Positions 1,245 through 54,205 of a stretch of 64,000 nt of DNA are shown here, in pieces. Both the position numbers and the translations under genes were made by a program. Position 1 is the stretch's first letter. Every line of letters begins with the position of its first letter. The notes beneath the pieces were generated by a model that worked only from the letters and a program-made list of their open reading frames with translations, had not been told where the DNA came from and did no database searches. The stretch comes from an uncultured Eggerthellaceae bacterium (GTDB lineage: Bacteria > Actinomycetota > Coriobacteriia > Coriobacteriales > Eggerthellaceae): the NCBI GenBank assembly GCA_947565915.1, contig CANOHY010000004.1, positions 9,254 through 73,253 on the forward strand, given 5' to 3'.

Positions 1245-1253
1245 GCGCGCCTC

Positions 1254-2240: not shown

Positions 2241-2267
2241 CCTTTCCTGCTGGCCGCTCGCGCAACT

Positions 2268-20131: not shown

Positions 20132-20899
20132 ATGACCCAAAGAAACCCCATGAACGACCGCAATCTTGCGGACAAGACCGGCCAAACGCGCAAGAGCGCT
20201 GCTTCGGCTAAGCCCAAGAGCACCCGCGCGGCAACCTTGCGCGACCCAGCGCCCAAAACGGCAAAACAAAAGAAAGCCGAGGCCAAGGCGCGTGAAGAGC
20301 AGCGTCATAAGCGCTCGATGGTGCTCGATGTGCGCTTCGAGGACACGCCACGCTACAAGCACCTGCGCCATTACTGGTGGGGCTTCCTGATTACGGCGAT
20401 AGCCTGCACGGCTATATCGGCAGTCATCTCCACGCAAACGGGCGCGCTATTCCAAGAGAACCCCGATGCCCTTTACCTGGGCTTCATGCCGCAATCGGTG
20501 GCCAATGCCCTGAGCATCGTGCTGATGGTGGGAGCCTACGGCTTCATCATCGCAGCATTCGTCGTGGACCTCTCGAAGGTACGCAAGGCTCGCAACGAGT
20601 TCGAGCAGCTCGTAGTGAACAGCAACAGCAAGGAGATGCGCCGCAGCCAGAAGAAGCATCGCGCCGAGCTTCGCGAGCAAGAGCGCGCGAAGAGAGAAGC
20701 CGAGGCGAACGCGCAAACCGCACCACAGGAAGAGAAGCCCAAGGGAATCCGCGGGCTGTTCGCACGCAAGTCCAAAAAGGCCGAGAAGGACGCCATCGAC
20801 AACGCCGTTGCCGAAACAGCTAGCACAGCCGATGAGACCACTGCCAGCAATAACTCAGATGCCTCAAGCGGTTCCGCGGACAAGAAGCAGGCGAAGTAA
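20132..20899 (+). CDS. hypothetical Lys/Arg-rich membrane protein (2 TM; DUF3043-like architecture)
   Basis: 255 aa with a basic N-terminal third, two TM helices and a charged low-complexity tail. The family assignment rests on architecture only. Confidence 0.5.
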   Translation: MTQRNPMNDRNLADKTGQTRKSAASAKPKSTRAATLRDPAPKTAKQKKAEAKAREEQRHKRSMVLDVRFEDTPRYKHLRHYWWGFLITAIACTAISAVISTQTGALFQENPDALYLGFMPQSVANALSIVLMVGAYGFIIAAFVVDLSKVRKARNEFEQLVVNSNSKEMRRSQKKHRAELREQERAKREAEANAQTAPQEEKPKGIRGLFARKSKKAEKDAIDNAVAETASTADETTASNNSDASSGSADKKQAK

Positions 20900-23386: not shown

Positions 23387-25153
23387 ATGAGCAGAATGCA
23401 ATCCCAGGGAAACCAAAGCAACCGGTCCGACCACAAGCGTGCCGTGTCGCGTGCGCGTCACACGCATGCGTCCGCTCGCTCGCAAAGCTCCAAGCGCAGC
23501 CCGGCAACCGCAGCTGCAAGGAAACCCCGAGCTGCAAGCGCACGCAAGGATGCGGGTGCTCGTCGGGGCGCAGATGCGCGACACGCATCTGCCGCGCGCA
23601 AGGCGACAGCTTCGCGCAAGCATGCAGCCAGCCGCAATTCATCGGCTTCGCGCCAGGGTGCCCTTTCGCATAAAGCTGCGAATGCGCATCGCGCCGAATC
23701 GCGCAAGCAAGCCCCGGCAGCTTCCGAAGCACCTGCCAAGAGCAAATCGCCCCTGCTTTCGCGGCGCGCTTTCGTGTATGGGGCCGTGGGCGTAGGCGCG
23801 GTGGCAGCCGTGGGCGTAGGCGCGGTGGCTCTGCGCAACCGAGGCAACGACAGCTCCGATTCCATCGACACGCTCTCGGTTCCCCAAGATGCGGTCGTGA
23901 CCCAAAACGACTTCGAAGCCCTTGACGATTATGCGCTGCAGGTCAAGCTGCGCGGATCTTTCGATATCCCCTACGGAACGCTGATCTGGGCAAACGACTC
24001 CGACATTGCCGCATGCCTCGTACCCACCGAATCAGGTTCGCCCCTAGCTAAGATTGCCATCCTGCACTTGAGCACGGGACTCCTGCAGAACATCCGCGAA
24101 GAAGCTGTTGGCAAGACCGAGGGCTTCGAGATGCTCGACGTGCGCGCAAACAGCTCGGGCGCGGTTTGGACCGAATCGAACATCATGGAAGGCTCTTGGC
24201 GCGTTTACTCCGCGCGCCTTGCCGGTGGCGCCCTGGAAGCACCTGTGCTTCTGGACGAAGGCACGAACGTATACGAAACGCCCACGCTGGCAGCCGTGGG
24301 AGGCCGCGCCTTCATGCAGAAGATCCCCAAAGATACCACCGACCGGCAAAGCACCTCGCAGCTTATCTCAGCGCCTTTCGGAAGCAGCGATGCCACCTGC
24401 TACTACGAATCGCCGCGGCGCAGCGCCTCTCCCATCTATGCGGCCGATAACGCAGTGGTGATTGCACCGCGAGCAGATGTGTCTTCGGCAATCTATCAGC
24501 TCACGCGCATCGATGCCGAAAGCGGCGAGGTCACCGATACGCTCGCGTTGCCCCAGAGCATGCGACCCCTGGAAGCAGCCTTTGGCAAGACGGGATTCAT
24601 GTTCTCGTTTCCCGACATCTACAACTTCGGCGGCGGCATCTCGAACTTGGGGACCTACGTTCCCTTCGCACTTCCGCAAAATGGCGATTACAGCGCGCAA
24701 GAGTGGTTCAGCTTCGCGCGCACGCCTACGGCGCCTCCCGCCTGGATGGACGACCTGCTCATCGTCAAGTCTACCTACGCCGTGTGCGGCGTGAATCTGA
24801 CCGAGGGCACCTATTTCGCCATCGACGTGGAAAACGGCGCCGATTCCTACGGCGAATACCTAGCCTCGAGCGGCCAAGGCAGCATCTTCGTCACCTACAC
24901 GAACATCGACCATACTCCCATCGAGGAAGAGCGCATATACGCTTGCCGCGTGAAGGTATGGGAGCGCATAGGCGAAAGCGAGCGTGCGCAGATGCAGGCA
25001 GAGGCTCAGGCGAAGGCTGAAGCCGAAGCTGCCGCTCAGGCCCAAGCCGAAGCATATGCGAAAGCTCTCGCAGAAGCAGAGGCGCTGGCAGCACAGGAGG
25101 AGCAAGCGCAGAACGCGGCTTCTGGCCTCGAGCAAGGTGCGATAACGGGATAG
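23387..25153 (+). CDS. hypothetical single-pass membrane protein with large extracytoplasmic domain and Ala/Glu/Gln coiled C-terminus
   Basis: 588 aa with an Arg/Ala/Ser-rich N-terminal ~125 aa, one TM (FVYGAVGVGAVAAVGVGAVAL), a ~400-aa domain, and an AQAKAEAEAAAQAQAEAYAKALAEAEALAAQEE tail. Confidence 0.55.
   Translation: MSRMQSQGNQSNRSDHKRAVSRARHTHASARSQSSKRSPATAAARKPRAASARKDAGARRGADARHASAARKATASRKHAASRNSSASRQGALSHKAANAHRAESRKQAPAASEAPAKSKSPLLSRRAFVYGAVGVGAVAAVGVGAVALRNRGNDSSDSIDTLSVPQDAVVTQNDFEALDDYALQVKLRGSFDIPYGTLIWANDSDIAACLVPTESGSPLAKIAILHLSTGLLQNIREEAVGKTEGFEMLDVRANSSGAVWTESNIMEGSWRVYSARLAGGALEAPVLLDEGTNVYETPTLAAVGGRAFMQKIPKDTTDRQSTSQLISAPFGSSDATCYYESPRRSASPIYAADNAVVIAPRADVSSAIYQLTRIDAESGEVTDTLALPQSMRPLEAAFGKTGFMFSFPDIYNFGGGISNLGTYVPFALPQNGDYSAQEWFSFARTPTAPPAWMDDLLIVKSTYAVCGVNLTEGTYFAIDVENGADSYGEYLASSGQGSIFVTYTNIDHTPIEEERIYACRVKVWERIGESERAQMQAEAQAKAEAEAAAQAQAEAYAKALAEAEALAAQEEQAQNAASGLEQGAITG
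23783..23830 (+). repeat. tandem 24-nt duplication inside the TM-coding segment
   Basis: GCCGTGGGCGTAGGCGCGGTGGC(A/T) occurs twice (23/24 identical), encoding AVGVGAVA twice. Confidence 0.9.
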
Positions 25154-28204: not shown

Positions 28205-29038
28205 CTAGATGCGGCGCATTTGCTCCAAAGTGACGTCATACCAATGCAGGTAGGTAGGCGGGCAGTAGCGCAAAGCGGCCGACTTGGTAAGGCTATAGCC
28301 ATAGCCACTTGCCAATCCTGCTACATGGTCGGTGATGGCTGAAGTCCAATTCGACCACGTGCGCGAACCCCACCCCCATGCGTTGCAGGGCAAGAAGCAC
28401 ACGCTGCCCATGCCGCTCTCCGTGTTCGAGATTGCTGGCGACCAGCGGGGGTCAACGCCGTTTTCCCAAGCCGCCTCGGCAAAGACCGAGCCATAGCCTG
28501 CAAGGTTCGATTGCCCCAGGTAGTCGTCTATGCGCTTGCTCCACTCGGCAACGAATGCCTCCTTGCCCACCGTCCAATCCACGGCAGGCAACCCATATTC
28601 GTCAGTCGATTCGCTGGCGGGCTGGTCTTGCGCATCCACGCCCTGCTTCTTCTTGTTGGCAGCCACGCGCGCGAGGGCTTGCGCCTTCTCTTCCTCGAGA
28701 CGCTGCGCTTCGATGGCCTCCAGCTCGTCAACCATCTGCAGACCCGCATCAAGCGAGCGATGATTGCTTGCGCCCAAAAGCGCCAGCTGCTCGTCGAAGC
28801 TGCCTTGCGCAGTTCCATCCTCAACCGTTGACGTGTCCTGCACCTCTTCGCCAGCAAGCGAAGTGGCCGAGTGAGTGGCCTCGTCGAAGCCGAAAGCGCT
28901 GATGCTTGCCACCTTATCGGACACCTCGGCAGAGGCCACGCCGAAACCGACGCCGCAGGCGACTAAGAGAATGAAAAAGCCGACGATGGTGAGCTTCACC
29001 ACTCCGTCGGCTCTACGTTTAAGCTGCTTCCGACTCAT
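28205..29038 (-). CDS. membrane-anchored secreted protein with lysozyme-like (glucosaminidase/GH73-like) C-terminal domain
   Basis: ATG at 29038 with GAAGGAG RBS and one TM (LTIVGFFILLVACGVGFGVA). The C-terminal AISNTESGMGS...NAWGWG resembles the LESGWG...NN.FGI motif. The family call is tentative. Confidence 0.45.
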   Translation of the reverse strand: MSRKQLKRRADGVVKLTIVGFFILLVACGVGFGVASAEVSDKVASISAFGFDEATHSATSLAGEEVQDTSTVEDGTAQGSFDEQLALLGASNHRSLDAGLQMVDELEAIEAQRLEEEKAQALARVAANKKKQGVDAQDQPASESTDEYGLPAVDWTVGKEAFVAEWSKRIDDYLGQSNLAGYGSVFAEAAWENGVDPRWSPAISNTESGMGSVCFLPCNAWGWGSRTWSNWTSAITDHVAGLASGYGYSLTKSAALRYCPPTYLHWYDVTLEQMRRI

Positions 29039-29222
29039 ATTTTGTTTTGCTCCTTCGGGCAGCAACCACTGCGCTGCCGTGAAGGGCTATTGTACTCCAC
29101 TGAATCCGCGCGGGGCAAACCAAACTGCCATGAACGGTCAATCCCCTGCTCAGAGCTTATGCTATCAACGACTCGCGCCAGTCGAAGCGTAGGAAGTCGC
29201 GGCCATCAACAAGCTTCGAGGC

Positions 29223-29939
29223 TCATTGCTCATCTGCCTCATCCTTGGCATGCCAGCGCTCCCAGAACCGAAGCTTAGCGAAGTAATCCCGGCGGTGCTG
29301 GCGCACGTAGGGCTGAAGCGCCTCGATCAGCTCGTCGGCATCCATGCCCTGGAGCCTGCTCGCGAGGAAGGCTATGCCGGGGATGGCGCGGTATCCATTC
29401 TCGTACTCCTCCAAGGTCATGAAGGGCTTGGCATCCACTGAACCCGAGTCATCCAGGCAGCCTATCACTACGAGTTCGCCCGAGCGCCTGACCCAGCGCA
29501 CGTCATCGATCGGGACCTCCATCATGGCCACCTCGGTTTCCATCCCGATGAGCCCATCCTCGAACCAGGTGATGCATTGCCCATCAGCATCGGGCTCGTC
29601 GAACCCGAGCCTCTCGGCGTACATCCGCATGGTGTTGCGCTGCTTTCTCTTTATGAACCAAAGCGGCGGCGAATTAGTAAGAAAAGCGACAATGAGGAAG
29701 AAGAGAATCAAGACGAAAACCCAAGTATTGCAAGCAACCAACCATGCTGGAAACTCAAGTAGCCAAGCAAGCAGAAATGCAAATAAGAGATAATACACAG
29801 AGACGATAATGAAAGCGAAGAACTTCTTCCACTTCGACATGAAGTCGCAGATGCGCGAGTACTCGAGGAACTGCTCCCTTGTGAATGAGTAGCTGCACTC
29901 GGCTTTCATGTCATCTGCCATTGGAATGGTTTGCTGCAT
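29223..29939 (-). CDS. hypothetical membrane protein, candidate immunity protein for the RHS toxin
   Basis: 238 aa. The first ATG overlaps the RHS ORF by 29 nt, with alternative ATGs at 29921 and 29909. It has 2-3 TM helices and a ~140-aa soluble C-terminal domain. The 5' half is A/T-rich. The immunity role is inferred from position only. Confidence 0.6.
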   Translation of the reverse strand: MQQTIPMADDMKAECSYSFTREQFLEYSRICDFMSKWKKFFAFIIVSVYYLLFAFLLAWLLEFPAWLVACNTWVFVLILFFLIVAFLTNSPPLWFIKRKQRNTMRMYAERLGFDEPDADGQCITWFEDGLIGMETEVAMMEVPIDDVRWVRRSGELVVIGCLDDSGSVDAKPFMTLEEYENGYRAIPGIAFLASRLQGMDADELIEALQPYVRQHRRDYFAKLRFWERWHAKDEADEQ

Positions 29940-32900
29940 ATTGATTGTCTTTCCATTGCTGCTTTTTTCCCGAGTCTTCTAAGTACTTATCTGCCATAAG
30001 AGCTCCAATGCCAAAAGCTACTCCAACCACTGCCATTGCAATCAGGCCAGCGGGGCCGCCAATCAGGGTACCGGCTAAAATGTAAGCACCCGATGCTGCC
30101 ATCAATCCTCCCGCAGTTGCGCCTACAAATACCCACGAATCTGCTAGGAACTCGACGCTTGCATCGCTCGCCGCTCGGTCCGGCGTCACGTTCGGGTTGT
30201 TGTAGGCTGCATAGGTGTCGACCGCCACGCTGCCTATGCCGGTAGCAACGCCAATAGCTCCGACGACCTTGCCAGCGCCACTCAGGATCTTGTTCATCGC
30301 GGCAAGGCTGCTTTCCCCGAAGCCCGTCCCAGACTTCACGACCACCCTGGCAGCCTGCCACCCGACCGCGTTCGCGCCCTTCGTGATCTCGATGGTGAAG
30401 CTCGCGCCCTTCTGCAGCGCATCGAGGGCGGTGGCGCATTGGGCTGCGGCCATGGGCTTGGGCGCCTCCTTGCCCATGTGGAGATACTGGCTGCAGTACT
30501 TCTCGGCAGCAGCCCGCGAGATCCAACCGTTGTTGTACATCGACCAGGCGAGATAGGAGCGGTCCGCTCCCTCTTGCATCTTGGAGAGCTGCTGCTCGTT
30601 GTACATGCGCTGCGCGGTCGTGGTCAGCTGGTGCGATTCGTTGTACTCCCTGCGCCTCTCGTAGGTCCGCTCCTTCGAGGATGGCGAGTACTTCGCCATG
30701 ATCGACTCTTGGCGCCTGCGCTCGGCCTCCGCCTTGTACTCGGCCTCGTAGCTCGTGAGCATCTTATGCCCAGATGGGTCGATTGCGTTCACCGGGTCGC
30801 CCTCGGAGTAGGCGTAGCGCAGCTGCGAGGCGGGGTTGGCTGCTTGTCCCAGATAGGTGTCCTGGCTTGCGAACGAGAGGGTGGCCGTCACGAGGAAGCG
30901 GGCCCGCAGGTAAACAAGCCCTGTGGCAGAGTCTGCCTCCTCGGCGTTCCAGCCGCGGCTCGGCAGCGTGCCCGTGGCGGCCTCGATCGTGCCGGTTACG
31001 CTGAACGCAGCGGTGCCCACGAGGCTGCCCGAGCCGTCGAAGGCAGCGGTCACCGAGCCGCGCCCGTCGAAGGCATATGAGGTCGCGCCCTCGGCAAGGG
31101 GAAGCGCAGAGAAGGAGCCGGAATCGGCTTGGGGAAGGCCACGGGTCTCGACCGAGGCAGCGGTGCTATTCGCAGACGGCTCGGCTACAGCCGACATCAA
31201 GGAGAGCTCAGGTTGGGCTTCCGTGGCAACGGGGTCGAGCAGGGCCGTCAGGTCGTCCCCGCCCGCATCGAACAGGTAGAGATGGTCGCTCGTCGCGCCA
31301 TCCTCTCCGACGGTCGCAAGGGGCTGGGCAACGTCGCTCAGGGACGTGCTCGCGTAGGCCCGCTCGTCCATGCCCACGATCACGCCGCCGCTTGCAAGCT
31401 CGCCTGCGATCGAGGATACCGGGGGCTCTCCTGCCCCCAGGCCGCCTGTGGCATCGTCCGACAGGTCGTCGGCATCGAGCTCGTCCCTGCCGCGCCCGCG
31501 CCCGCGCGCATGCCACTTGGAGGCCAGAAGCTGCAGGAGCGCCCCCGATGCAGCAGGATTCGCTATACCTAAGGACCCTGCGAACCCCGAGCAGAGCGCG
31601 AGGGCCAGCGGTGCCAGCCCATCGCCCAGGTTGGGAAGCGCATCGGCGACGCCCTCCGATGCCGACACCCCGCCTTGGGCGATGGCCTCCTCTCCCACGC
31701 TCGCCTGCCAGACGCGGTTGCCATCCCCGTCGTAGGCAACGCCGAGCGAGAGCGCGTCTCCCTGCATCACGGCCGTCAGGCGGTTCTCGAGCCCGTAGGA
31801 ATAGGTGGTAGTGCCATCGGGCGCTTCTAGCTCCGTCAGGTTCCCGGCATCGTCGTAGGCATAGGTGGTCTTCCCTTCATTGCTCGTGGAGCTCACGAGC
31901 CTACCATCGGCGTCATAGGCGAACGTGGCGTGGTAGGCGCCCGCTCCCGTGCGGGAAGCCTCGACGCGGTTGCCCGCCGCATCGTAGGCGAAGCTCTCCT
32001 TAAAGGCGCCATCAGGGCCTGTGCCCGCAACGCCGGCAAGCCTTCCGGCATCGTCGTAGGATAGCTCGCGGCTGCCCTCGCCGAGTCCTTCGGCCTGCCA
32101 CTGCTCGCGGGCTATGCGCCCCGCGCCATCGTAGGCATACGCGTAGCTCGACACGGGATCACCGTGCGCATCGAGGTTCTCGACAGCAGATATGCGCCCG
32201 AGGCCATCCCTCTGCCATGAGGTGGAGGACCCGTCGGGGCGAGCGACGGATGCGGGGCGCCCCTCCGCATCGCAGGAGATGTTCCAGCTGCCCGCATCGG
32301 TTGAGATGGACGCAGGGTTGCCAGCGACGTCGTAGGAATAGCGGGCCACCTTGCCGTCCGGGTAGGCGACCGACGACACGCGCCCGTCGCCGTCGTATGA
32401 GTAGGCAAGTCGCCTGCCCGCTCCGTCGGTCTCGGACGCTATGCGCCCCGCTCCGTCGTATTCGCGCATGTAGGTTCCCGTCCAGTCGGAGCGCGAGGCA
32501 AGGTTGCCCTCGTCGTCGTAGGCGTAGCCCACCTCCGATCCAGGCGATGCGGGGTAGGACTTCGAGGTCAGGTTGCCCTCGCCGTCGTAGGCGAAGCGCG
32601 TCTCGGTGCCTGCGCCATCGACGTAGGAGGTCGGCCGCCCCGCGGCGTCCCGGGCGATCCTCTCGGTTGCGCCCGTCGGCGAGGTGACGCTCGTCAGGTT
32701 GCCGAGGGCGTCGTAGGCGTAGGAGGTGGTGGCGCCGAGCGCATCGGTGGCGCTCGCGACGTTGCCGAGAGCGTCACGCTCGTAGGTGGTGCTGCCCGCG
32801 CCGTCAGTGACCGAGGCGATGCGGCCTGCGGCATCGTATGAGTAGGTGGTGGGCTGGGATGTGCCCTCGGACCTCGAGGTCAGGTTGCCCGCCGCATCGT

Positions 32901-35900
32901 AGGCGTAGCGGGCGGACTGGGCGCCCTCGGGCGCTTGCCCGCTCTCCTGGAGGGACCGAAGCGCCGATGCGGCGCCATCGGCGCTCGCCGCCTTGACCGA
33001 GGCCATAAGGCGCCCTGCCTCGTCGTACCCGAACGCTGATGCCGTGCCGAAGGCGTCGGTTGCTGCCACCACGCGGCCGTCGGCATCGTAGCGCCAGGTA
33101 GAGACGCCCTTGCCGACCTTCTTGGAGGCGAGGTTTCCCGCCGCGTCGTATGAAAAGGCGGCCTCGACGGTCGCCCCGCTTGTTGCCGAGACGAGGTTTC
33201 CGCGCTTGTCGTAGGCGTAGCGCGCCGTCGCACCCGCGCCGTCGGTCATCGAGGTGGGACGGCCCATCCCGTCGTAGGCGATGCGGGTCGCATTCCCTGC
33301 GCCGTCGCGATAGGCGATGACGTTGCCCACCGCGTCGTAGGCCCACTTGCGCTCGCTGCCGTTGGAGTCGGTAGCCGAGGTCAGGCGCCCGAGCGCATCG
33401 TAGGCGAAGGCGTTCTCGAGCCCCAGGTTGTCGGCTATGCCCACGATGTTGTCCATGACGTCATAGGATAGGGCAAGCTCACGGCCTAGAGGAGTGGTCG
33501 TGCCCACAAGCCGGTCGGCGACGTCGTAGGCATAGGTCTGCGTGGCCCCGACGGCATCGGTGACCCGGATGAGGTTTCCAACTTGGTCATGCTCGAGGGT
33601 AGTGGTGGCACCTATCGGGTCGGTCATGGACGTGACGTTGCCCGCCGCATCGTAGGCGTAGGCGGTGGCGTGGGAAAGCGGGTCCTTGGCGGCGGTTACG
33701 TTTCCGGCTCCATCGTAGGCATAGGAGCTCTCCGCGCCGCTCGGGTCCCTCCAGGCGATGAGGTTGCCCACGCCGTCGTAGTCGAAGCTCAAGGCTCGGC
33801 CGCTCGGGAGCGCGAAGCGCACGAGGTTGCCTGCCCCATCGTATGCGTATGCGGTCTCGTTGCCGAGAGGATCCGTCTCGGAGGTCAGGTTGCCCGCCTC
33901 GTCGTATCCGTAGGTGCGCCGGTATCCCTCCCCGTCGGTCATGGCGACGATGCGCCCCGCATCGTCGTAGGCATAGGCGCTCATGGCCCCCGCCTTGTCG
34001 ATGGCGGCAACCACGCGCCCGCAGCCATCGTATTGGTAGGCGGTGCGGTTGCCTGCCGCATCCTGCTCCAGGACGAGGTTTCCGCACTTGTCGTGCTTGC
34101 GCGTGCTCGCGTTGCCGAGGGCATCGGTGGTGGATACGAGCAGCCCGCATGCGTCGTATGCGTAGGTGGTGACGGCTCCCGCCGCATCGGTCGCCCGGAC
34201 GACCTCGCCCCATTCGTCGTACTCGCTTGTCACGGTGCGCCCGAGCATGTCCGTCTTGGAGATCTGGCGTCCCGCCCCGTCGTATCCGAAGTCCCAATGG
34301 CGCGCATCACCGTCTGACGCCGAGGTCATGTTGCCGCGCACGTCGTAGGCGAACGAGAGCGTGACTCCCATGACGTCGGTCAAGGAGGTCAGGTTGCCAA
34401 GAGCGTCGTAAGCGAGGCTCGCGGCGTTTCCGCGTGCGTCCACGGTGCGCGCCACGTTGCCCGCTGCGTCGTATCCCTGCTCGGTGCGGTTGCCGAGCGC
34501 ATCGATCGCGGCAACGGCGCGCCCGAGGGCATCGTATTCGAAGGCGGTCGTAAACCCGCGCGCATCGGTTGTTTTGACGAGGTTGCCGACCGCGTCGTAC
34601 TCGAAGGCGGTGACGTTGCCCGCGCCATCGGTCACGGAGAGCAGCTCGCCTATGGAGCCGTAGGCGTAGCGCACCTCGACGCCCGCGCCGTCAACCTGCG
34701 CGATCACGTTTCCCCGAACGTCGTATTCGGTCGAGATGGTCGCGCCTTCTGGGTCGGTCGTCGACACCTGGCGCCCTGCGCCGTCGTAGGCATAGGTGGT
34801 GACGTTGCCTTCGGGGTCGGTCGCGGAGGCGAGGTTGCCCGCTGCGTCGTAGGCGAACGCCCACTCCTCCCCTGCCGGGTCGACCATAGACGTCATCTGC
34901 CCGGCCTCGTCGTAGGCGAGCTCCCAGATCCTCCCCTCCACGTCGACCTTGGCGAGCCTGCCGGCAGCGGTGTAGGCGTAAGATGTAGTCGCACCCGCCC
35001 CATCCGCCTCGCTTATCAATCTGCCGCCAGAAGCGTAGGCTCGCTCGGCAATCGTGCCGAGGGCATCTTCGCTCTTGGTCAGGCGGCCCATGGTGTCATA
35101 GGTGCTCTCCGTGCGGTTGCCGAGCGCGTCGATGGTGGCGAGCGCTACCCCGTAGGTTCCGTCGCGCTCGTAGGTGGTGATGGCACCATCCGGCCCCTCC
35201 TCGGAGGTGAGATAGCCGCGGGCATCGTAGGCATAGGAGGTCGCGTTCCCGGCAAGATCGGCATGCGCGGTGCACCTGCCCTTGCAGTCGTAGGACCAGG
35301 ATTCCACGTTGCCCAAGGCGTCCGTGTGCGCGACCTGGTTGCCTGCCGCATCGTAGGCATAGGATTCGGTGGCGCCGCTCGGAAGGGTAACCGAGGTGGC
35401 CTGTCCCTTGGCGTCGCGGATGAACGCCGTGCGTTGGCCGTTCGCATCGACGAGGGACGCGAGGTATCCCATGGGAGTGAGCTCGTAGGTGGTATGAGCA
35501 CCTGTGCCGTCCGTCTCGCCGACGATGTTGCCCGCAGCGTCGTACATGGTGCGCGAGATATTGCCCGCAGGGTCGGTGACCGACACGCGTCGGCCCATGG
35601 CATCGTAGGCATAGGCCGTCGTGCGCCCCAATGCATCGGTCTCGCTCGTCACCCACGGGCCGGAATACGCGTAGGCGATGGACACCCCGTCGGCATCGGT
35701 GGCGCGGAGGAGGCGGTGCGCCGAGTCGTACTCGAAGGAGAAGGCCTCTCCGCTCGACGACGTTTGCGAGACGAGGTCTCCCGCAGCGCTGTAGGCGTAG
35801 GAGATCTCCTCGCCATCGGGGTTCACCTGGCCAACGAGGCGGTTCTTCCCATCATAGGAATAGCTCGTCGCCCAGCCATCGGGCGAGGTGGAGCAGGTCA

Positions 35901-38900
35901 GGTTGCCGCGCCCGTCGTGGGCATAGATGCCCTCCTCGTCGTAGGCGAGGTTTCCGGATGCGTCGTATCCCCGCGAGACGGAGGTGCCGTCCGGATAGCC
36001 TATCCCCACCGTGCGCATGAGCGAGTCGTAGCGGTAGGTGGTCACCTGTCCCATGGCGTCGGTCGCGATGGTGGCGCCGCCCACGTAGGAGAAGCGCACC
36101 ACGCCTCCGAGAGCATCGGTCTGGCTTATGACGCGCCCTTGGTTGTCGTAGGCGTTGCGCACGGCCATGTTGCCATCTGGGTCCCTGAAGGAGGTCATGC
36201 GATGCGCCCCGTCGTAGCCATAGCGGGAGGTGGCGCCATTGGGCTCGGTGGCAGATACCAGGTTGCCGGAGGCATCGTAGCCGTACGTGCAGGCGGCCCC
36301 TCCGGGAAGCGCGAGCTTGGTGATATGCCCTGCAGCGTCCCACTCGAGCCCGAAGCGGATGCCCGAGGGGGAGACGACCGCGGAGACGAGCCCCTCGGCA
36401 TTCCTTTGGATGGTGGTAGCGAGCCCCAGCGCGCTCGTGCGGCTGGTCATGAGCCCCCAGGCGTCGAAGGAGTCGTAGGAGCCGTCCTGCCGCGAGAGCG
36501 TCCAGCGGACGTAGTCGACCTTGTTCTGCGTGTAGCGCGTGCCGGTCAAGGTCAGGGCGGGCTCCTCGGGGCATCTGAACGTGAGACCGCTCGCGCGGCT
36601 GAAGAAGTACACCTTGCCATCCCCCGCAGAGTACGCGATGGTGTTGGCGTCGGTCATGGAAAGCGATGCATCCCACGCAAACGACCAGCCGCGCCCGAAG
36701 GCCCCGGCCACATCTGCCGCCTTGGAGTTGTAGGTGCGGGCGAGCTTAAAGTCGCCTTCCACCTCGGGCACGCTCGCATCCACGCGCTCCATCACGAAGT
36801 TGCCGGTGCTCAGGTTCACCGGCTCGTATCCGTACTCGCAGTGCTTGGCCCTGCCCATGAGCGCCGAGTCGATCCGCCTCTTCTGGTCCACCGAGAGGTT
36901 TGAGGGGTTGTAGGCAGCGGTGGTCTTGGGGTTGCGGACGAAGAGCGTGTTGCCCTTGATGGAAAGCGAGTCGTGCACGTGGTTGTCCGCGCAGATGGTG
37001 GAAAGGGAGACCCCGTAGTGCTTGGCGATGTAGGGCAGGGTGTCGGTTGCCTTGGCCTGATAGATCAAGAACTTGTCGCTTGCCACCTCCTTGCCGACGG
37101 TGGCGTTCAGCACCGGCTGGGCGCGAAGGGAGTAGAGCGCATCTGCCGAGAGATTGGCGAAGAGCGGCGTTTGCCAGTTTCCGAGCTTGTCCTTGTACTT
37201 GGTGGCGTTCGGGTAGGCGGCCTCCCAAGCGGAGGAGTCGGGGTACTTGTAGCTCTTGGAGGCTATCGAGGCCCCCGCATCCCCGCGGCCATCGAGCTGC
37301 CAGCCCACGGCAGCGCCGGGTGTCGCCACCCCGTCTGCGAACACGCCATCGACCGCTTGGGTGCCCGCGACGGTCGTCTCGGTGACGGGCCGCAGGGCCA
37401 CGGTGGTGGAGTTCAAGGGATAGGAGGGGCTCACCGGGTCGGGAGTCGACCACTTGACCTCGAGCTTGGGCGGGTTGGCCGAGGTGTTGCCGGAGAACAC
37501 CTCGCATTGCATGTTGCGCTCGTCCTCGGACTTGAGCACGATGCCGTTGGGGGCGGCCAAGCCCTGCGCCCAGGCGTTCACCGCCTCGCGCACGTCCCAC
37601 TTCACGTAGCCCTCGGAGGTGCGCGCCTTCTTGAATGACAGGAAGGTGTGCTTGGCGTTCTTCTGGGTGTTCCACTTGAGCGTGTAGTAGTCCCACGCCT
37701 CGTCCATCCGGTAGGCGCCCATGTTGTTCTTGCCAGCCGAAAGGGTGGTGAACTGGTAGAGCGAGAAGGTGGCCGAGTCGATGCGCTCCTCGTTCATGTT
37801 GGCCGCAAAATCGTAGTCGAACTTCGCGTAGACGCGGCAGAACTCGTGCCCGCGCCCTCCCGGGTTGAAGGCGCCAGAGGCGGTTGCCACCCCGTCGTCA
37901 TAGCCCACCGGCAGAAAGCCCGAGTCGCCGATGACGCGGTCCCACGCCGACTCGACCACGGTGATGGTGGTCTTGGAGGCGCCGATGGAAACAGAGGGGT
38001 CTATGCGCACGGGGTAGGCCCGCTCGGGGGCACTTGCCCACTCCCAGTCGATGTCGAGCGCGATGACGGGCGCGCCTTCCTCCTCGTCGAGCGCGAGCCT
38101 CACCCCATCGCTCACCGCCCCGGCTGCATCCTCCATGTCAGGCGCGGCTATCGTCGCGACGAGCTCTCCGGCCGCATCGCGCACCACGACCGAGCCCTCC
38201 TCCAGCGCGCAGGCAAGGCGCGCGGGCAAATCGATGCGCGTTCGGAAGGTGCGCGGGGCCACCTCGCGCTTGAGGATCACGTCCTCCTTCACGAGCGAGC
38301 CCACGAGCGTGTACTGGTAGTCGATGCCCTCGGCAACCTCGGTGTAGCGGATGGAGGTGCCCTCCGCGGCCGACACCGTGAAGTCGCCGTCCAAGGGAAC
38401 CAGTCCGATGCTGCACTCATCGGCCCGAAGGACAAGCCCGCGCCCCTCGTCCATCTTGGCGGGAAGCTCCGCCGAAAACGAGTTCGCGGCGTTCACGTAG
38501 GTTGGGTTGCCTGCTTCCTTGCCTGGCACAGCCACAAGGGTGTTGTCGATGGGGGCGAGCGCGCCGTCCTCGGTGGCGTAGACGAGGTCGCGCCCGCCTA
38601 TCACCGTGGTGAAGTGGCGCGCATCCTCCTGGAAGACCACCGCCTCGCCGTCGGTTGCCACGGGAGTGCCGGGCACCTCGTCGAGCTCGAATCCGTAGAA
38701 GTCCTCTGGAGGCGCCGCCTTGGGGTCTGCCGGCTCGGGTGCCTTGGCCTCTTCTGGCTTCTCGGCGCCTTCCGTTGCCACCCCGTCAGCCAGCGAGGAG
38801 GCGAGCTCGGCCTGCTCCTCGATCCTCTCTGCGAGCTGCTCCTGCACCTCGGCCGCATGGGCGAACGATACCTTGCCGCCCAGGCTGAAGGCCAAGACGA

Positions 38901-39681
38901 ACGCGAGGACGCACGCGCATCCCTTCGAGAGCGCGCCTGCGAGCTTTCCCTTCGCTCGCGCGACCACGGGAAGCGCAAGCAGGCTGCGCCGAGGGCCGAG
39001 CGTCGCTTCCTGGCGCACGATGGCCGATATGCAGCAGAGCCACGCAACGCCGCCGATTAGGTTCAATGCGAAATGTAGAGCCCCTCGCATGCCATAAGGC
39101 GCAAGGCCTATGGCGGCGCCCAGCAGATGCGAGGCGCCCGCGAAGGCCGCCGTGAGCAGCAGGAGCGCGAGCAAGAGGTGCTTGGATGCTGCGAGCGCAT
39201 CTGTCGCCTTCGGGCGCCCAAGCCCGAGGACCGGGGCCAGGAAGAGCGCGAGCATCACTGGCACTGCGAGCACGGCGAGCACCTGTGCGAAGATGGCGAT
39301 GGCGATGGCCACCCCGTCGCGGCCGACCAGGCTGCCGAGCAGCGCCTGGAAGAGGAGCGCGAAGAGCACGCTGGCAACGCCCAGAGCGAGGGCGAAGGCC
39401 GCGAGCAGCCCGAATGCGCGCAGCAGCGCAGATGCCGCTTGCCGTGGTTCGCGACAGGCTAGCTCGCGCCCTAGATCGCGCGCGAGCTCGCGTCGCAGAG
39501 CGAGCCCGCATGCCACGATGGCCAGCGCGAGCAGCACGAAGAGCCCATAGACGATGGGCGCGGGAACGCTTCTGAGCCGGTTGGAGAGGGCGGCATCTGC
39601 CAGAGCATAGGTGAGCGACGCGCATAGCGAGAGCGCGCACGAAAGGAGCAGAGCTCTTTGTTGAAAGAAATTCCCCCTCAT
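29911..39681 (-). CDS. giant RHS/YD-repeat polymorphic toxin (WapA-like): N-terminal polytopic membrane region, LysM-like segment, YD-repeat shell, RHS-core end, 284-aa C-terminal domain of unknown family
   Basis: 3256 aa from ATG 39681 (AGGAGGTG 7 nt upstream), whereas the track ORF starts 25 codons earlier. It carries dozens of YxYDxxGN/R repeats and VNLSTGNF at the repeat start. The core end reads ...GLVYLRARF...SQDTYLG...GDPVNAIDPSGH. Confidence 0.9.
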   Translation of the reverse strand: MRGNFFQQRALLLSCALSLCASLTYALADAALSNRLRSVPAPIVYGLFVLLALAIVACGLALRRELARDLGRELACREPRQAASALLRAFGLLAAFALALGVASVLFALLFQALLGSLVGRDGVAIAIAIFAQVLAVLAVPVMLALFLAPVLGLGRPKATDALAASKHLLLALLLLTAAFAGASHLLGAAIGLAPYGMRGALHFALNLIGGVAWLCCISAIVRQEATLGPRRSLLALPVVARAKGKLAGALSKGCACVLAFVLAFSLGGKVSFAHAAEVQEQLAERIEEQAELASSLADGVATEGAEKPEEAKAPEPADPKAAPPEDFYGFELDEVPGTPVATDGEAVVFQEDARHFTTVIGGRDLVYATEDGALAPIDNTLVAVPGKEAGNPTYVNAANSFSAELPAKMDEGRGLVLRADECSIGLVPLDGDFTVSAAEGTSIRYTEVAEGIDYQYTLVGSLVKEDVILKREVAPRTFRTRIDLPARLACALEEGSVVVRDAAGELVATIAAPDMEDAAGAVSDGVRLALDEEEGAPVIALDIDWEWASAPERAYPVRIDPSVSIGASKTTITVVESAWDRVIGDSGFLPVGYDDGVATASGAFNPGGRGHEFCRVYAKFDYDFAANMNEERIDSATFSLYQFTTLSAGKNNMGAYRMDEAWDYYTLKWNTQKNAKHTFLSFKKARTSEGYVKWDVREAVNAWAQGLAAPNGIVLKSEDERNMQCEVFSGNTSANPPKLEVKWSTPDPVSPSYPLNSTTVALRPVTETTVAGTQAVDGVFADGVATPGAAVGWQLDGRGDAGASIASKSYKYPDSSAWEAAYPNATKYKDKLGNWQTPLFANLSADALYSLRAQPVLNATVGKEVASDKFLIYQAKATDTLPYIAKHYGVSLSTICADNHVHDSLSIKGNTLFVRNPKTTAAYNPSNLSVDQKRRIDSALMGRAKHCEYGYEPVNLSTGNFVMERVDASVPEVEGDFKLARTYNSKAADVAGAFGRGWSFAWDASLSMTDANTIAYSAGDGKVYFFSRASGLTFRCPEEPALTLTGTRYTQNKVDYVRWTLSRQDGSYDSFDAWGLMTSRTSALGLATTIQRNAEGLVSAVVSPSGIRFGLEWDAAGHITKLALPGGAACTYGYDASGNLVSATEPNGATSRYGYDGAHRMTSFRDPDGNMAVRNAYDNQGRVISQTDALGGVVRFSYVGGATIATDAMGQVTTYRYDSLMRTVGIGYPDGTSVSRGYDASGNLAYDEEGIYAHDGRGNLTCSTSPDGWATSYSYDGKNRLVGQVNPDGEEISYAYSAAGDLVSQTSSSGEAFSFEYDSAHRLLRATDADGVSIAYAYSGPWVTSETDALGRTTAYAYDAMGRRVSVTDPAGNISRTMYDAAGNIVGETDGTGAHTTYELTPMGYLASLVDANGQRTAFIRDAKGQATSVTLPSGATESYAYDAAGNQVAHTDALGNVESWSYDCKGRCTAHADLAGNATSYAYDARGYLTSEEGPDGAITTYERDGTYGVALATIDALGNRTESTYDTMGRLTKSEDALGTIAERAYASGGRLISEADGAGATTSYAYTAAGRLAKVDVEGRIWELAYDEAGQMTSMVDPAGEEWAFAYDAAGNLASATDPEGNVTTYAYDGAGRQVSTTDPEGATISTEYDVRGNVIAQVDGAGVEVRYAYGSIGELLSVTDGAGNVTAFEYDAVGNLVKTTDARGFTTAFEYDALGRAVAAIDALGNRTEQGYDAAGNVARTVDARGNAASLAYDALGNLTSLTDVMGVTLSFAYDVRGNMTSASDGDARHWDFGYDGAGRQISKTDMLGRTVTSEYDEWGEVVRATDAAGAVTTYAYDACGLLVSTTDALGNASTRKHDKCGNLVLEQDAAGNRTAYQYDGCGRVVAAIDKAGAMSAYAYDDAGRIVAMTDGEGYRRTYGYDEAGNLTSETDPLGNETAYAYDGAGNLVRFALPSGRALSFDYDGVGNLIAWRDPSGAESSYAYDGAGNVTAAKDPLSHATAYAYDAAGNVTSMTDPIGATTTLEHDQVGNLIRVTDAVGATQTYAYDVADRLVGTTTPLGRELALSYDVMDNIVGIADNLGLENAFAYDALGRLTSATDSNGSERKWAYDAVGNVIAYRDGAGNATRIAYDGMGRPTSMTDGAGATARYAYDKRGNLVSATSGATVEAAFSYDAAGNLASKKVGKGVSTWRYDADGRVVAATDAFGTASAFGYDEAGRLMASVKAASADGAASALRSLQESGQAPEGAQSARYAYDAAGNLTSRSEGTSQPTTYSYDAAGRIASVTDGAGSTTYERDALGNVASATDALGATTSYAYDALGNLTSVTSPTGATERIARDAAGRPTSYVDGAGTETRFAYDGEGNLTSKSYPASPGSEVGYAYDDEGNLASRSDWTGTYMREYDGAGRIASETDGAGRRLAYSYDGDGRVSSVAYPDGKVARYSYDVAGNPASISTDAGSWNISCDAEGRPASVARPDGSSTSWQRDGLGRISAVENLDAHGDPVSSYAYAYDGAGRIAREQWQAEGLGEGSRELSYDDAGRLAGVAGTGPDGAFKESFAYDAAGNRVEASRTGAGAYHATFAYDADGRLVSSTSNEGKTTYAYDDAGNLTELEAPDGTTTYSYGLENRLTAVMQGDALSLGVAYDGDGNRVWQASVGEEAIAQGGVSASEGVADALPNLGDGLAPLALALCSGFAGSLGIANPAASGALLQLLASKWHARGRGRGRDELDADDLSDDATGGLGAGEPPVSSIAGELASGGVIVGMDERAYASTSLSDVAQPLATVGEDGATSDHLYLFDAGGDDLTALLDPVATEAQPELSLMSAVAEPSANSTAASVETRGLPQADSGSFSALPLAEGATSYAFDGRGSVTAAFDGSGSLVGTAAFSVTGTIEAATGTLPSRGWNAEEADSATGLVYLRARFLVTATLSFASQDTYLGQAANPASQLRYAYSEGDPVNAIDPSGHKMLTSYEAEYKAEAERRRQESIMAKYSPSSKERTYERRREYNESHQLTTTAQRMYNEQQLSKMQEGADRSYLAWSMYNNGWISRAAAEKYCSQYLHMGKEAPKPMAAAQCATALDALQKGASFTIEITKGANAVGWQAARVVVKSGTGFGESSLAAMNKILSGAGKVVGAIGVATGIGSVAVDTYAAYNNPNVTPDRAASDASVEFLADSWVFVGATAGGLMAASGAYILAGTLIGGPAGLIAMAVVGVAFGIGALMADKYLEDSGKKQQWKDNQYAANHSNGR

Positions 39682-39798
39682 GGCATCCACCTCCTGGCGG
39701 ATGCCATGAATCTTACCATTTTCAAGCCCCAAAATCAAGCTCTGACCGGGGAACACTTGTTAGTGTCAGAAAGCGCTGATGATATATAGCCAATTCGA

Positions 39799-39827
39799 AA
39801 TCATCGAACATCGAATCCAGAAGTCAA
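39799..39827 (-). promoter_or_regulatory. candidate promoter for the RHS gene (TTGACT - 17 nt - ATGATT)
   Basis: It lies in an A/T-rich 107-nt gap between the PspC-domain gene stop and the RHS 5' region. The -35 is good and the -10 is weak. An alternative TATATA lies at 39783-39788. Confidence 0.25.
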
Positions 39828-51730: not shown

Positions 51731-53530
51731 TTAGCGGCGCGACGAGCTCCTGAACAAAGCAACGCATACCACAGCTACCGCCACGATCGCACATACCGCT
51801 AGAGGTAAAACGGGCAGCGTGTCGGAGGTCGAAGCAAGCTGGGTCTTAGAGGTATAGCCCTCATTGTTGCCATTCATGCCGTCAGCAGGACCTTCAATGG
51901 TAAACTGCGCATTCACCTCGGTGTTCCCGTCATCGAACACTGCAGTGATGGTGTGCGAGCCCAAGCCCTGACGCTCAAGGAATTCCGGGTAAAGCTTCAC
52001 CACGGTAGTGCCTGCCATGGAATCGTACTCGCTTATGACGATGGCCTTGTCGTCCACTTTCACGATGTGCTTGAAGCGGCCATAATCGGGCGAGAACGCG
52101 AACGTGAGGTCGTCGCTCGAGCCCTTGCGCCACACGGAATCGTTGCCGCTCACCAAGCTCGCATCGGCTAGATCGGTAGAGCGGAATACCATGGCCACAT
52201 TCGGAGTGGTGGGAGTGGTGGGAGTGGTGGGATCGGTGTCCGTACCATCGCCAGTGCCATCTCCTTCGTCGGCAGTGTCGAGCGAACCGCCGTTGCCATC
52301 GCCCTCGGTGCCCGTATCCGAACCGGTATCGGAACCCGTACCAGGCGTGTTGGTGGTGGAAAGGATGGTGGAGCCAAGAGCATACAGCTTGCCTAGATAC
52401 GTGCATGCAGCCGTACCGGAAAGCGCGCCGTCATGCGCCGTATAGGCATAGGAGCTGAAGGAGCTGCCGTCCCAGGGCATCAAGAACGTGTCGGAAGAGC
52501 CGTCCGAAGCCAACGGGCCCACCATCACGCAGCCCGAATCAGACCAGGCGAGCGAACCGTAATCGTAGGCGCGCTTGGAAGGATACGATGCCGCATTGGA
52601 GGGCACGGCAAATGTGGGGAACGCTCCCGAAGCAACTGTGGTCGAACCGTTGGCATACACCATGAGCTTGGGTGAGCCTGTGCCCGCTTGAAGCTCGTCC
52701 AGCGAATTGGCATACGATGCGATGCACAAGGAGCCGTTATAAGGTTCGATTTGGGGATTGACAACGCTTTGGCCAAGCGACCCCTTCTCCTCGAAGGCGC
52801 CCGCCGAAAGCTCGTAATCGTAGATGTTGCCCGTAGGCGAGCCGTTCAGCACACCACCTACAGCCTGGAGCACGCCTGCGTTGTTCACCAAGCCGCATGC
52901 GATGGGCAGCGAATCCGACGACGCCGCGATCCATTCAGGGAACTCGTCATCGAGGTTCAGCATGTACACGCGCTGGCGCGGATTCGCAGCATGGACAGGA
53001 TACCCTTCATCGTTGGTATCCATAGTGGTGCCAGTCCAAACCAGATAGCCCATCTTGTCGGCCGTAGCACCGAACTTCACCACGCTGCAATACTCAAGCC
53101 ACTCGGGAACACCTGGCTGAAACGACCACGTGCCCGATTTGATGTCGAAGCGCTCGCACGAACGGAAGGCACTGGTGAACCCTCCATCCTGCAGCGGGAA
53201 GGCAATCTCGCGGAAATAATACAGGCCATCGCCCGAACCCACCAGGATGCCATCGTTGAGCACGTTGGTGGCATGCGAGCATATATCCAAGTCGGCACCG
53301 CTCATGAACTCGTTGCTAGTGGTAAGCGGAGGCGCCGTGAGCGTGCTGGGATACAGCGACGCCGTAGCCTGCGTTTCGATTTCTTCCTCGGCAGGGGCGA
53401 AGCCCACGACGCGATAGAAGAGATCCTGAAAGAAGTTTCCCGATGAACCATCATCGGCAAAGGCAACTGCCGGGCACATGGACAGCGCCAGCAGCAATGC
53501 CACGATTAAACGAGCGCTCTTCTGCAGCAT
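51731..53530 (-). CDS. secreted surface protein, hypothetical (signal peptide, beta-propeller-like N-domain, Thr/Pro/Asp/Gly linker, Ig-like domain, C-terminal hydrophobic anchor)
   Basis: It has the signal peptide MLQKSARLIVALLLALSMCPAVAFA and a GAGGGAA RBS. The C-terminus reads ...QLASTSDTLPVLPLAVCAIVAVAVVCVALFRSSSRR. Confidence 0.6.
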   Translation of the reverse strand: MLQKSARLIVALLLALSMCPAVAFADDGSSGNFFQDLFYRVVGFAPAEEEIETQATASLYPSTLTAPPLTTSNEFMSGADLDICSHATNVLNDGILVGSGDGLYYFREIAFPLQDGGFTSAFRSCERFDIKSGTWSFQPGVPEWLEYCSVVKFGATADKMGYLVWTGTTMDTNDEGYPVHAANPRQRVYMLNLDDEFPEWIAASSDSLPIACGLVNNAGVLQAVGGVLNGSPTGNIYDYELSAGAFEEKGSLGQSVVNPQIEPYNGSLCIASYANSLDELQAGTGSPKLMVYANGSTTVASGAFPTFAVPSNAASYPSKRAYDYGSLAWSDSGCVMVGPLASDGSSDTFLMPWDGSSFSSYAYTAHDGALSGTAACTYLGKLYALGSTILSTTNTPGTGSDTGSDTGTEGDGNGGSLDTADEGDGTGDGTDTDPTTPTTPTTPNVAMVFRSTDLADASLVSGNDSVWRKGSSDDLTFAFSPDYGRFKHIVKVDDKAIVISEYDSMAGTTVVKLYPEFLERQGLGSHTITAVFDDGNTEVNAQFTIEGPADGMNGNNEGYTSKTQLASTSDTLPVLPLAVCAIVAVAVVCVALFRSSSRR

Positions 53531-54203: not shown

Positions 54204-54205
54204 GG

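Follow-up and report, generated by a model that had tools for sequence, protein, structure and literature searches.

A WapA-type RHS toxin gene with a six-helix membrane module fused in frame in an uncultured Eggerthellaceae bacterium

How might a monoderm bacterium export a toxin of more than 3000 residues, and what might such a toxin do to the cell that receives it? Both questions are raised by a locus in 64,000 nucleotides (nt) of DNA from an uncultured Eggerthellaceae bacterium (assembly GCA_947565915.1, contig CANOHY010000004.1, positions 9,254 to 73,253). We refer to this whole stretch as the window. One open reading frame (ORF) in the window encodes a giant RHS protein, and the next encodes a small membrane protein. 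The system is a WapA-type RHS polymorphic toxin with an immunity gene, which is a known kind. What is new is that a family of uncharacterized, apparently accessory, six-helix membrane proteins is fused here in frame ahead of a probable internal signal peptide. The RHS/WapA toxins of Gram-positive bacteria have been little studied, and the searchable literature yielded nothing on RHS systems in Eggerthellaceae or on the fused six-helix layout, nor any report of interbacterial weapons in this gut lineage. We think it likely that the locus is a chromosomal two-gene cassette of the Gram-positive WapA type, used by a high-GC monoderm against other bacteria by the mechanism set out below.

Domain architecture and the variable tip

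A first-pass annotation of the DNA had described a 9771-nt ORF that starts at ATG 39681 and encodes a membrane region, a beta-rich region with a carbohydrate-binding-type segment, a LysM-like segment, YD repeats, an RHS core and an unrelated tail. Pfam and NCBIfam scans confirmed the ORF and this domain order (Table 1). The frame is open over 3281 codons (29911..39756, minus strand), and the GC content at third codon positions (GC3) is 0.78-0.89 along the toxin ORF. A strong Shine-Dalgarno sequence precedes ATG 39681, and this start is supported by the alignment with the closest full-length relative, protein P0003, which is colinear from residue 3.

In an exhaustive HMMER search, 3568 representative proteins matched amino acids (aa) 1-620 with an expectation value (E) of at most 1e-3, nearly all of them through the beta-rich domain at aa 341-611, and the long proteins among them are built in the same way throughout and have DP[ST]GH as their boundary motif. 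A word-indexed homology search with the same residues returned nothing, and the exhaustive search was needed. No Pfam model matches the beta-rich domain, which was confirmed in 250 metagenome stretches. The domain that follows it scores 76.2 bits against the DNRLRE model NF033679 (cut-off 34) and 44.4 bits against the CBM96 model PF24517 (cut-off 26). The LysM-like segment proposed in the first pass is present, and is 83% identical to that of P0003, but its score is below the Pfam threshold.

The shell and its boundaries resemble those of WapA from Streptococcus suis. The DUF6531 domain opens with E↓PVNLSTGNF (aa 953-962, 36796-36825; arrows mark cleavage sites), the N-terminal autocleavage motif of the S. 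suis protein, and is followed by the YD repeats (38 stretches matching RHS_repeat, PF05593, at E 1.5e-281). The proposed RHS core is borne out by TIGR03696 (Rhs_assc_core), which matches aa 2905-2972 at 38.8 bits, above its curated cut-off of 32.5, and ends in IDPSGH. DP[ST]GH is a family-wide boundary in 31 long relatives. Both S. suis-type cleavage motifs are therefore present, the second as IDPSGH↓K (aa 2972/2973). The protein also has the Asp of ..SQDT.. and that of ..IDPSGH, which are putatively catalytic, as in Tc and Rhs proteins.

Between the last YD repeat and the core lies a low-complexity insert that is 47% identical to that of P0003, with 19 gapped positions; window positions 31108-31464 have no DNA-level alignment to the P0003 locus. 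The insert contains a conserved hydrophobic helix, GLAPLALALCSGFAGSLGIANPAASGALLQLLASKW (aa 2688-2723, 31513-31620), and hydrophobic stretches occur near the same position in distant relatives (FWYG... in P0008, P0010 and P0014).

Beyond the core, a 284-aa tail follows DPSGH, and it is here that relatives part company. P0003 (locus L019) is 70.8% identical to the window in nt over 7.5 kb, and the homology breaks off within the His codon of DPSGH, at 30767. At the protein level the two shells are 63-83% identical, the proximal tails 31% and the distal tails 19%. Locus L002, from an ENA metagenome (ERZ14651336 NODE_140), diverges similarly: up to 30776 the end of its RHS core matches the window at 88% DNA identity, after which the tail is 35% and the next ORF 34% identical. 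The earlier proposal of a variable tip on a conserved shell is upheld by both comparisons. In addition, L019 and the RHS locus L001, from an uncultured Eggerthellaceae metagenome-assembled genome (MAG), occupy the same chromosomal site (right flank 94% identical in nt; dprA side to trmFO/xerC side) and have different main tails.

Relatives of the window tail and of the downstream gene are scattered through these loci. Tail relatives occur in the RHS loci L001 and L002, which together hold four further tail paralogs, and orphan copies of the immunity gene occur in L001, L002 and L019. In L002 (1-4420), the main tail with its immunity gene is joined by an orphan 212-aa toxin with an immunity gene and by a window-type immunity gene in broken form. 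The broken copy has 89% aa identity and retains the last ~50 nt of a window-type toxin gene, and it looks like a displaced module. The ENA sample that yielded L002 also contains a contig, L006, that matches the window at 99.99% identity over 15 kb; one genome probably carries both L002 and the window-like L006, since they share the sample and a coverage of ~6.5x. Arrays of the immunity family, with up to eight paralogs or fragments and some on the opposite strand, are found in L001 (1-8056) and L019 (13800-17951). Because the shell is kept, the tails are swapped at DPSGH, and paralogous pairs and orphans lie elsewhere, we conclude that the locus is an RHS cassette of the Gram-positive WapA type, made up of a polymorphic toxin and its immunity gene.

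By eye, the P0003 tail (L019 13800-15036) has a PT-TG-like motif and a ...HIHF... segment. It is followed by ORFs of 109 and 305 aa that are unrelated to the window immunity family and are presumably P0003's own immunity genes.

The base composition of the cassette is the classical RHS pattern, with a GC content of 0.67-0.69 in the core, 0.595 in the tail, 0.544 in the immunity gene and ~0.60 in the flanks. The first-pass annotation had left the acquisition of the locus unexplained. The GC pattern now accounts for part of this; no mobility genes were found among the family-matched ORFs of the window.

The six-helix module and the internal signal sequence

The N-terminal ~275 residues, described earlier as a polytopic membrane region, do contain hydrophobic segments throughout aa 10-275, and we can resolve these into six helices and a seventh that resembles a signal peptide. 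Hydropathy and charge distribution predict that the N-terminus is inside and that basic loops follow helices 2, 4 and 6. An AlphaFold2 model of the six helices is confident, with a predicted local distance difference test score (pLDDT) of 82.7 and a predicted template modelling score (pTM) of 0.77. The region is colinear with that of P0003, at 44% identity and without gaps, and only Pro141 and Gly211 are nearly invariant in the alignment of the module. Of the 150 best-scoring representative relatives, 86 show a single hydrophobic segment ahead of the beta domain, and in 24 there are at least three (mode seven); the six-helix module is kept in 24 of the 150. The fused form is found in high-GC and low-GC organisms alike (P0010, P0012, P0093 and P0107 are low-GC). 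Initiation at the internal GTG that precedes helix 7 was rejected, as that codon is without a Shine-Dalgarno sequence and the region upstream of it is conserved in relatives of both kinds. Thus, the colinearity with P0003, the fused form in both GC classes and the poor internal start all indicate that the N-terminal region is translated and conserved.

Helix 7 is in the position of a Sec signal peptide. Many relatives have only a signal peptide ahead of the beta domain, and in phmmer alignments their residues 2-18 are the first to pair with the window protein, at its aa 250-260, which makes helix 7 positionally equivalent to their Sec signal. AxA-type c-regions occur at this position in most of the fused relatives, and the segment (aa 236-275) is 70% identical to that of P0003. 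We predict cleavage after AHA↓AE, at what would be an internal Sec-signal-like helix.

Some relatives encode the six helices in a separate gene. Two signal-peptide-only proteins, P0020 and P0091, are preceded by six-helix genes of 228 and 209 aa that end 3 nt and 67 nt, respectively, before the RHS start. A profile of 19 fused N-terminal modules matches these stand-alone genes in hhalign with a probability of 96% (E 4e-9), compared with at most 0.3% for the controls (reversed sequences, AgrB, CydB, CmpB and DUF4013). In a scan of metagenomes with the beta-domain profile, 80 loci were returned and 78 analysed. The fused six-helix/RHS layout was found in 6 of the 78, and the scan added nine distinct stand-alone members to the neighbours of P0020 and P0091, for a total of 11. 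Against all 11 proteins, the module aligns over 151 colinear columns with a probability of 98.3% (E 1.2e-14). The stand-alone genes end a few nt from the RHS start, and 4 of the 11 overlap it by 4 nt (one of these being a close variant of another). No sortase gene was seen upstream of them. Two signal-peptide-only loci, L010 and L016, have no such six-helix gene as a neighbour.

The module has no match in Pfam or NCBIfam, and aa 1-275 match nothing in Pfam even at E up to 10. Given the stand-alone homologues and the lack of a match to a known family or structure, we regard the module as a family of its own, as yet unannotated, with genetic coupling to WapA-type RHS genes. A natural fusion in some loci and an abutting separate gene in others are genetic evidence for a dedicated RHS partner. 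The module therefore looks like an accessory protein fused here to its client, and the coupling, together with the analogy to S. suis described below, suggests a role in export or assembly.

Two results weigh against such a role. A Foldseek search of the PDB with the AlphaFold2 model gave a best E of 0.6 (CysZ, TM 0.38) and no SecD/F among the top 50 matches, and a SecF-like identity was rejected on this ground. Also, we could not detect homology between the module and the membrane protein of the published srtB-membrane protein-wapA loci, which are found on plasmids of Lactococcus raffinolactis and a Streptococcus species (hhalign probability 0.1-0.3%, even with a merged profile of 30 sequences). 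The two plasmid proteins are related to each other (E 3e-17), and tblastn of the Streptococcus protein against plasmids returned only itself. Other identities were tried and set aside: PrsW or CPBP, with no Pfam match at E up to 10 and no conserved catalytic Glu or His motifs in the alignment, and DUF4013, AgrB, CydB or CmpB, each with an hhalign probability of at most 0.3%.

In other loci the slot before the RHS gene is filled by an AgrB gene from an agr operon or by a CPBP protease. A WapA-like RHS gene comes soon after agrB in several Firmicutes-type loci (L014/L015 (1892-4984), L029, L032, L033, L034, L061 and L062). In L014/L015 the gap is 17 nt, and the agr-like operon comprises a LytTR regulator, a small peptide, an AgrC-like kinase and AgrB. 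An RHS gene at the end of an agr-like quorum-sensing operon suggests density-dependent control of the toxin. A CPBP/CAAX-type intramembrane protease (EEFIFRG, FGLFH, HGLYN) is directly 5' of the RHS gene in L050, L051 and L058 (~2585-3349).

The tail, its immunity protein and the proposed mechanism

The 238-aa membrane ORF had been seen to overlap the toxin stop codon; the overlap is 29 nt, and the protein has two hydrophobic helices. A conserved N-terminal motif is followed by a two-helix membrane hairpin, both ends of which are predicted to be cytoplasmic, and by a cytoplasmic C-terminal domain of ~140 aa. The protein has no match in Pfam, NCBIfam or the PDB, and a scan of the genomes of 185,579 species with the immunity profile found a single locus, in an Eggerthellaceae MAG. 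As the first-pass annotation had proposed for the next gene, it behaves like an immunity gene. A family member lies directly 3' of each of five toxin paralogs, with a short gene overlap, and the closest toxins go with the closest immunity proteins: the window tail is most similar to the L001 orphan tail (47%), and the window immunity protein to the product of the gene beside that orphan (53%). Two observations point the other way. Toxin and immunity identities correlate weakly across the five pairs, and the two immunity proteins of L002 are 48% identical, compared with 32% for their toxins. The adjacency and the family behaviour are observed, and from these we infer that the ORF encodes the cognate immunity protein and would neutralize the toxin.

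The tail itself has no family match, even at E up to 10, and none in Pfam, NCBIfam or the PDB. Among 5.8 billion proteins, a sequence search found two relatives and a profile search a four-protein family. The toxin family is extremely rare, and both the toxin and immunity families are new to Pfam, NCBIfam and the PDB. The proximal tail contains the motif YLAWSMYNNGWI...APKPM (YNNGWI...APKPM), which is common to P0003, whose distal toxin differs. Because it is shared with a relative bearing another toxin, the proximal tail is probably a pre-toxin adaptor. The distal ~160 residues are 34% Gly plus Ala, with three amphipathic or hydrophobic helices and an invariant NNPNVxPDRAxxDAxVE. There are seven GxxxG motifs in the distal tail, compared with 2.7 +/- 1.5 in shuffled sequences, ~1.5% of which reach seven.

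We suspect that the tail inserts in the target membrane and depolarizes it. This is the likeliest mode of action, though our belief in it only slightly outweighs our doubt. It would fit the hydrophobic and GxxxG content of the tail, the lack of room for an enzymatic domain and the integral-membrane immunity protein, and it has precedents in the Rhs pore former Tse5 (PMC9637101, PMC10684867) and the glycine-zipper toxin EsxX (PMC12744356). Three results speak against it. The strict (G/A/S)xxxGxxxG zipper is not enriched (5, compared with 3.2 +/- 1.7 in shuffles). An AlphaFold2 model of the tail, made from five sequences, is all-helical with an unreliable pLDDT of 45. Lastly, the best match in a profile search of the PDB, the pore-forming colicin S4, is not significant (E 0.25).

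We postulate the following mechanism. The toxin and immunity genes would be co-expressed, as their 29-nt overlap suggests. The first ~235 residues would insert in the membrane as six helices with the N-terminus inside, and helix 7 would act as an internal Sec signal peptide from which a passenger of ~2980 residues is exported, probably with a cut after AHA(275). The six-helix module would serve as a dedicated accessory membrane protein, with a part in export or assembly like that of the upstream membrane protein needed for killing by S. suis WapA. Judging from motifs and analogy, the beta domain, the DNRLRE/CBM96 domain and the LysM-like segment may hold the protein on the wall, and the YD repeats may form a shell round the tail, with autoproteolysis at E↓PVNLSTGNF and after DPSGH. 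The 284-aa tail would then be delivered into a neighbour, where its Gly/Ala-rich helices may enter the cytoplasmic membrane and dissipate the potential. In the producer, the two-helix immunity protein would neutralize the toxin in the membrane. Delivery, which had been left unexplained, is now most likely to proceed through Sec, by way of the internal signal-like helix after the fused module.

Several other explanations deserve consideration. The hydrophobic tail might be a translocation or entry module for a small unrecognized activity, or it might act on another envelope target. For example, Tde1, a type VI secretion system (T6SS) DNase, has a glycine-zipper segment that is needed for translocation and not for toxicity (PMC10240207), and the window tail is modular too, since it shares the YNNGWI...APKPM subdomain with P0003 despite a different distal toxin. 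However, the ~160 residues that remain past the adaptor are mostly Gly/Ala-rich helices, no catalytic-type invariant cluster of His, Cys, Glu or Asp stands out in the five paralogs, and the immunity protein is embedded in the membrane. We consider this alternative unlikely. Far less probable still, and the last that we would choose, is that the cassette is aimed at host or other eukaryotic cells in the manner of Tc toxins or teneurins. Insecticidal Tc toxins also use RHS shells and the organism occurs in gut-type metagenomes, but there are no TcA, TcB or SpvB parts. The immunity family dedicated to the toxin and placed downstream of it, the orphan arrays and the additional, broken copy in a second locus are all typical of polymorphic toxins used between bacteria (PMC3482391).

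Export, too, could be viewed differently. The six-helix region could be a mere anchor, or the frame could be open there by chance because the DNA is GC-rich, the real start being near helix 7; in either case the region would have no export function. There is an in-frame GTG before ..VARAKGK.., and a plain signal peptide suffices in most relatives, including those of L010 and L016, which have no six-helix neighbour. Yet the internal GTG lacks a purine-rich Shine-Dalgarno sequence of the kind that precedes ATG 39681 (AGGAGGTG), and the region that would have to be spurious is colinear with P0003, is modelled with confidence by AlphaFold2, is homologous to separately encoded proteins, and occurs in low-GC relatives, in which chance open frames are unlikely. 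We thus find this alternative quite improbable. It would be more surprising again if export relied on a specialized system elsewhere in the genome, such as the type VII secretion system (T7SS/ESX), and not on Sec. Only 64 kb of the genome was seen, and LrhA of Listeria is an Rhs protein predicted to be linked to T7SS (cited in PMC12704120). But the protein has no LXG, WXG, PAAR or VgrG domains and has a signal-peptide-like helix where its relatives have their Sec signal, and S. suis WapA, which has the same architecture, depends on a Sec signal (PMC12704120).

Place among known systems and genomic surroundings

The nearest characterized systems are the WapA proteins of S. suis (WapA-CT1) and Bacillus subtilis. 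S. suis WapA consists of a Sec signal, DNRLRE, LysM, DUF6531-Rhs and PreT-CT (PMC12704120). It localizes to the wall, its killing depends on the Sec signal, and it is cut after the Glu before PINLNTGNF (by Edman sequencing) and after the His of DPxGH (PMC12704120). Two further proteins are required, a class B sortase and a polytopic 'SecF-like' membrane protein encoded upstream, and how WapA proteins of >300 kDa pass across the membrane and wall is still unknown (PMC12704120). The window system is like those of S. suis and B. subtilis in size (>3000 aa), in its monoderm host, in the order of its parts from the predicted signal sequence to the downstream immunity gene, in the motifs E↓P(I/V)NL(N/S)TGNF and ...GH↓, and in the coupling of a polytopic membrane protein at the 5' end. 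In contrast to both, that membrane protein has no gene of its own here but precedes the predicted signal sequence as part of the same reading frame. Unlike S. suis WapA, the window protein has a single, sub-threshold LysM, no class B sortase nearby, and a tail and immunity protein of other families. It also differs from loci with the srtB-secF-like-wapA arrangement, in that there is no separate upstream membrane gene and no detectable homology links the fused module to the Streptococcus/Lactococcus protein.

Other systems resemble the tail or the outline of the locus. Tse5 (RhsP1) of Pseudomonas aeruginosa has an Rhs C-terminal tail that forms membrane pores (PMC9637101, PMC10684867). Like the window protein, it combines an RHS shell with a hydrophobic, helix-rich tail and a membrane immunity protein, although for the window tail membrane activity is our prediction. 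Tse5 is, however, a T6SS effector of a diderm that is delivered through PAAR/VgrG, and it has no sequence similarity to the window tail. EsxX is a glycine-zipper, membrane-depolarizing T7SS toxin (with TspA and TelE; PMC12744356), and ionophoric CdiA-CT toxins are also known (PMC11630599). These toxins and the pore-forming colicins are small, helical, Gly/Ala-rich and hydrophobic, as the window tail is predicted to be, and have membrane immunity proteins, but their carriers are LXG, CdiA or colicin proteins, and the window tail lacks strict-zipper enrichment. RHS toxins linked to the PrsW peptidase likewise have a multi-helix N-terminal membrane domain (PMC3482391); the window module has no PrsW or CPBP match. 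Lastly, the enterobacterial Rhs elements (PMC3150448, PMC3967940) have in common with the window a GC-rich core, a variable tip of lower GC, a DPxG recombination boundary and displaced orphan tails and immunity genes, which in those elements lie downstream. They are T6SS-linked, proteobacterial and ~1400 aa long, whereas the orphan modules of the window system lie in sister loci.

No PAAR, prePAAR or VgrG-binding parts or T6SS genes, and no LXG/WXG100 domain or EssC, were matched in the protein or in the family-matched ORFs of the window. More broadly, the statement that the window has no T6SS, T7SS, transposase or integrase gene, and by our scan no sortase, holds for the family-matched members of its ~40 ORFs (Pfam or NCBIfam); seven ORFs have no family, and the scan leaves open such a role for them. 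No sortase B was found in the window by tblastn, and there is no tRNA. The window contains no orphan copies of the toxin or immunity gene, and the locus is one toxin/immunity pair. The promoter-like site 5' of the RHS gene (Table 1) is weak evidence, because chance alone would give 2.0 such sites in 13 kb, and two were found.

The housekeeping genes around the cassette encode two TrkA proteins, adenylosuccinate lyase, PspC, a CBS/CorC protein, CydAB, a NiFe hydrogenase, HypD/HypF and aconitase. An ORF of 286 aa (28205-29065, minus strand) that separates the immunity gene from trkA has an N-terminal membrane helix and a C-terminal part that recalls glucosaminidase motifs by eye (..SNTESGMG..NAWGWG..). 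The first-pass annotation had called it a cell-wall hydrolase; it belongs to no Pfam or NCBIfam family, with no model matching even at E up to 10. It is also without a counterpart in the sister loci, and its inclusion in the cassette is unsupported. Neither Pfam nor NCBIfam has a match for five sizeable ORFs whose GC3 is coding-like: 23387-25153 (plus strand, 588 aa), 51731-53530 (minus, 599 aa), 58483-60564 (minus, 693 aa), 54188-54970 (plus, 260 aa) and 20132-20899 (plus, 255 aa). A ribosomal protein L10 leader (RF00557, 47.6 bits), an ordinary element, is at 58319-58457 on the minus strand, and at its 3' end it runs into the beginning of an ORF, presumably rplJ, that spans 57748-58389 at its longest. 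A polytopic DUF4013 membrane protein with a Pro/Gln-rich tail is encoded at 55734-56810 (minus strand) and is unrelated to the RHS N-terminal module (hhalign probability 0.1%).

Table 1. Positions in the window of the RHS toxin gene, its protein regions and adjacent features.
Feature	Residues (aa)	Position	Strand	Basis or description
Promoter-like TTGACT-16 nt-GATGAT, 5' of RHS gene		39800..39827	minus	consensus scan
Shine-Dalgarno sequence AGGAGGTG		39688..39695	minus	6-nt spacer to ATG 39681; read from sequence
RHS/WapA-type polymorphic toxin gene	1-3256	29911..39681	minus	3256 aa + stop, 9771 nt
Six-helix membrane module	1-235	38977..39681	minus	hydropathy, positive-inside loops
Basic loop and seventh hydrophobic helix, like a Sec signal peptide	236-275	38857..38976	minus	..RAKGK-LAGALSKGCACVLAFVLAFSLGG-KVSFAHA↓AE (predicted cut)
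Ala/Glu/Pro-rich linker	276-340	38662..38856	minus	translation
Beta-rich N-terminal wall-associated domain (putative)	341-611	37849..38661	minus	conserved; motifs GIDYQYTLVGSLVKEDVIL and ERAYPVRIDP
DNRLRE / CBM96 carbohydrate-binding domain	612-743	37453..37848	minus	above both cut-offs
LysM-like segment	871-918	36928..37071	minus	PF01476 17 bits, aa 875-905, under gathering score 20.9
DUF6531 plug domain	953-1027	36601..36825	minus	PF20148 65 bits
YD/RHS repeat shell	1028-2659	31705..36600	minus	38 RHS_repeat and 27 TIGR01643 stretches
Variable low-complexity insert, in C-terminal part of shell	2660-2866	31084..31704	minus	translation, hydropathy
RHS-associated core	2867-2972	30766..31083	minus	ends in GDPVNAIDPSGH
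Proximal tail	2973-3095	30397..30765	minus	charged helical stretch and conserved motif YLAWSMYNNGWISRAAAEKYCSQYLHMGKEAPKPM
Distal toxin module (putative)	3096-3256	29914..30396	minus	Gly/Ala-rich amphipathic and hydrophobic helices, then LEDSGKKQQWKD
Probable cognate immunity gene	238 aa	29223..29939	minus	overlaps toxin ORF by 29 nt

We propose, tentatively and with rather more doubt than confidence, that the six-helix proteins form a family not described before, dedicated to the export or assembly of the giant WapA-type RHS toxins of monoderms and, separately, that the tail and its immunity protein are a new, lineage-restricted membrane-depolarizing family. If the tail does depolarize membranes, its family would be a new entry among the few known RHS pore formers. 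If the module does act in export, its fusion to the toxin would link the targeting of the ribosome to the membrane with the export of a 3000-residue passenger and would bring factor and client together one to one at the translocon. The six-helix family would then offer a concrete way into the question of how Gram-positive bacteria export proteins of >300 kDa.

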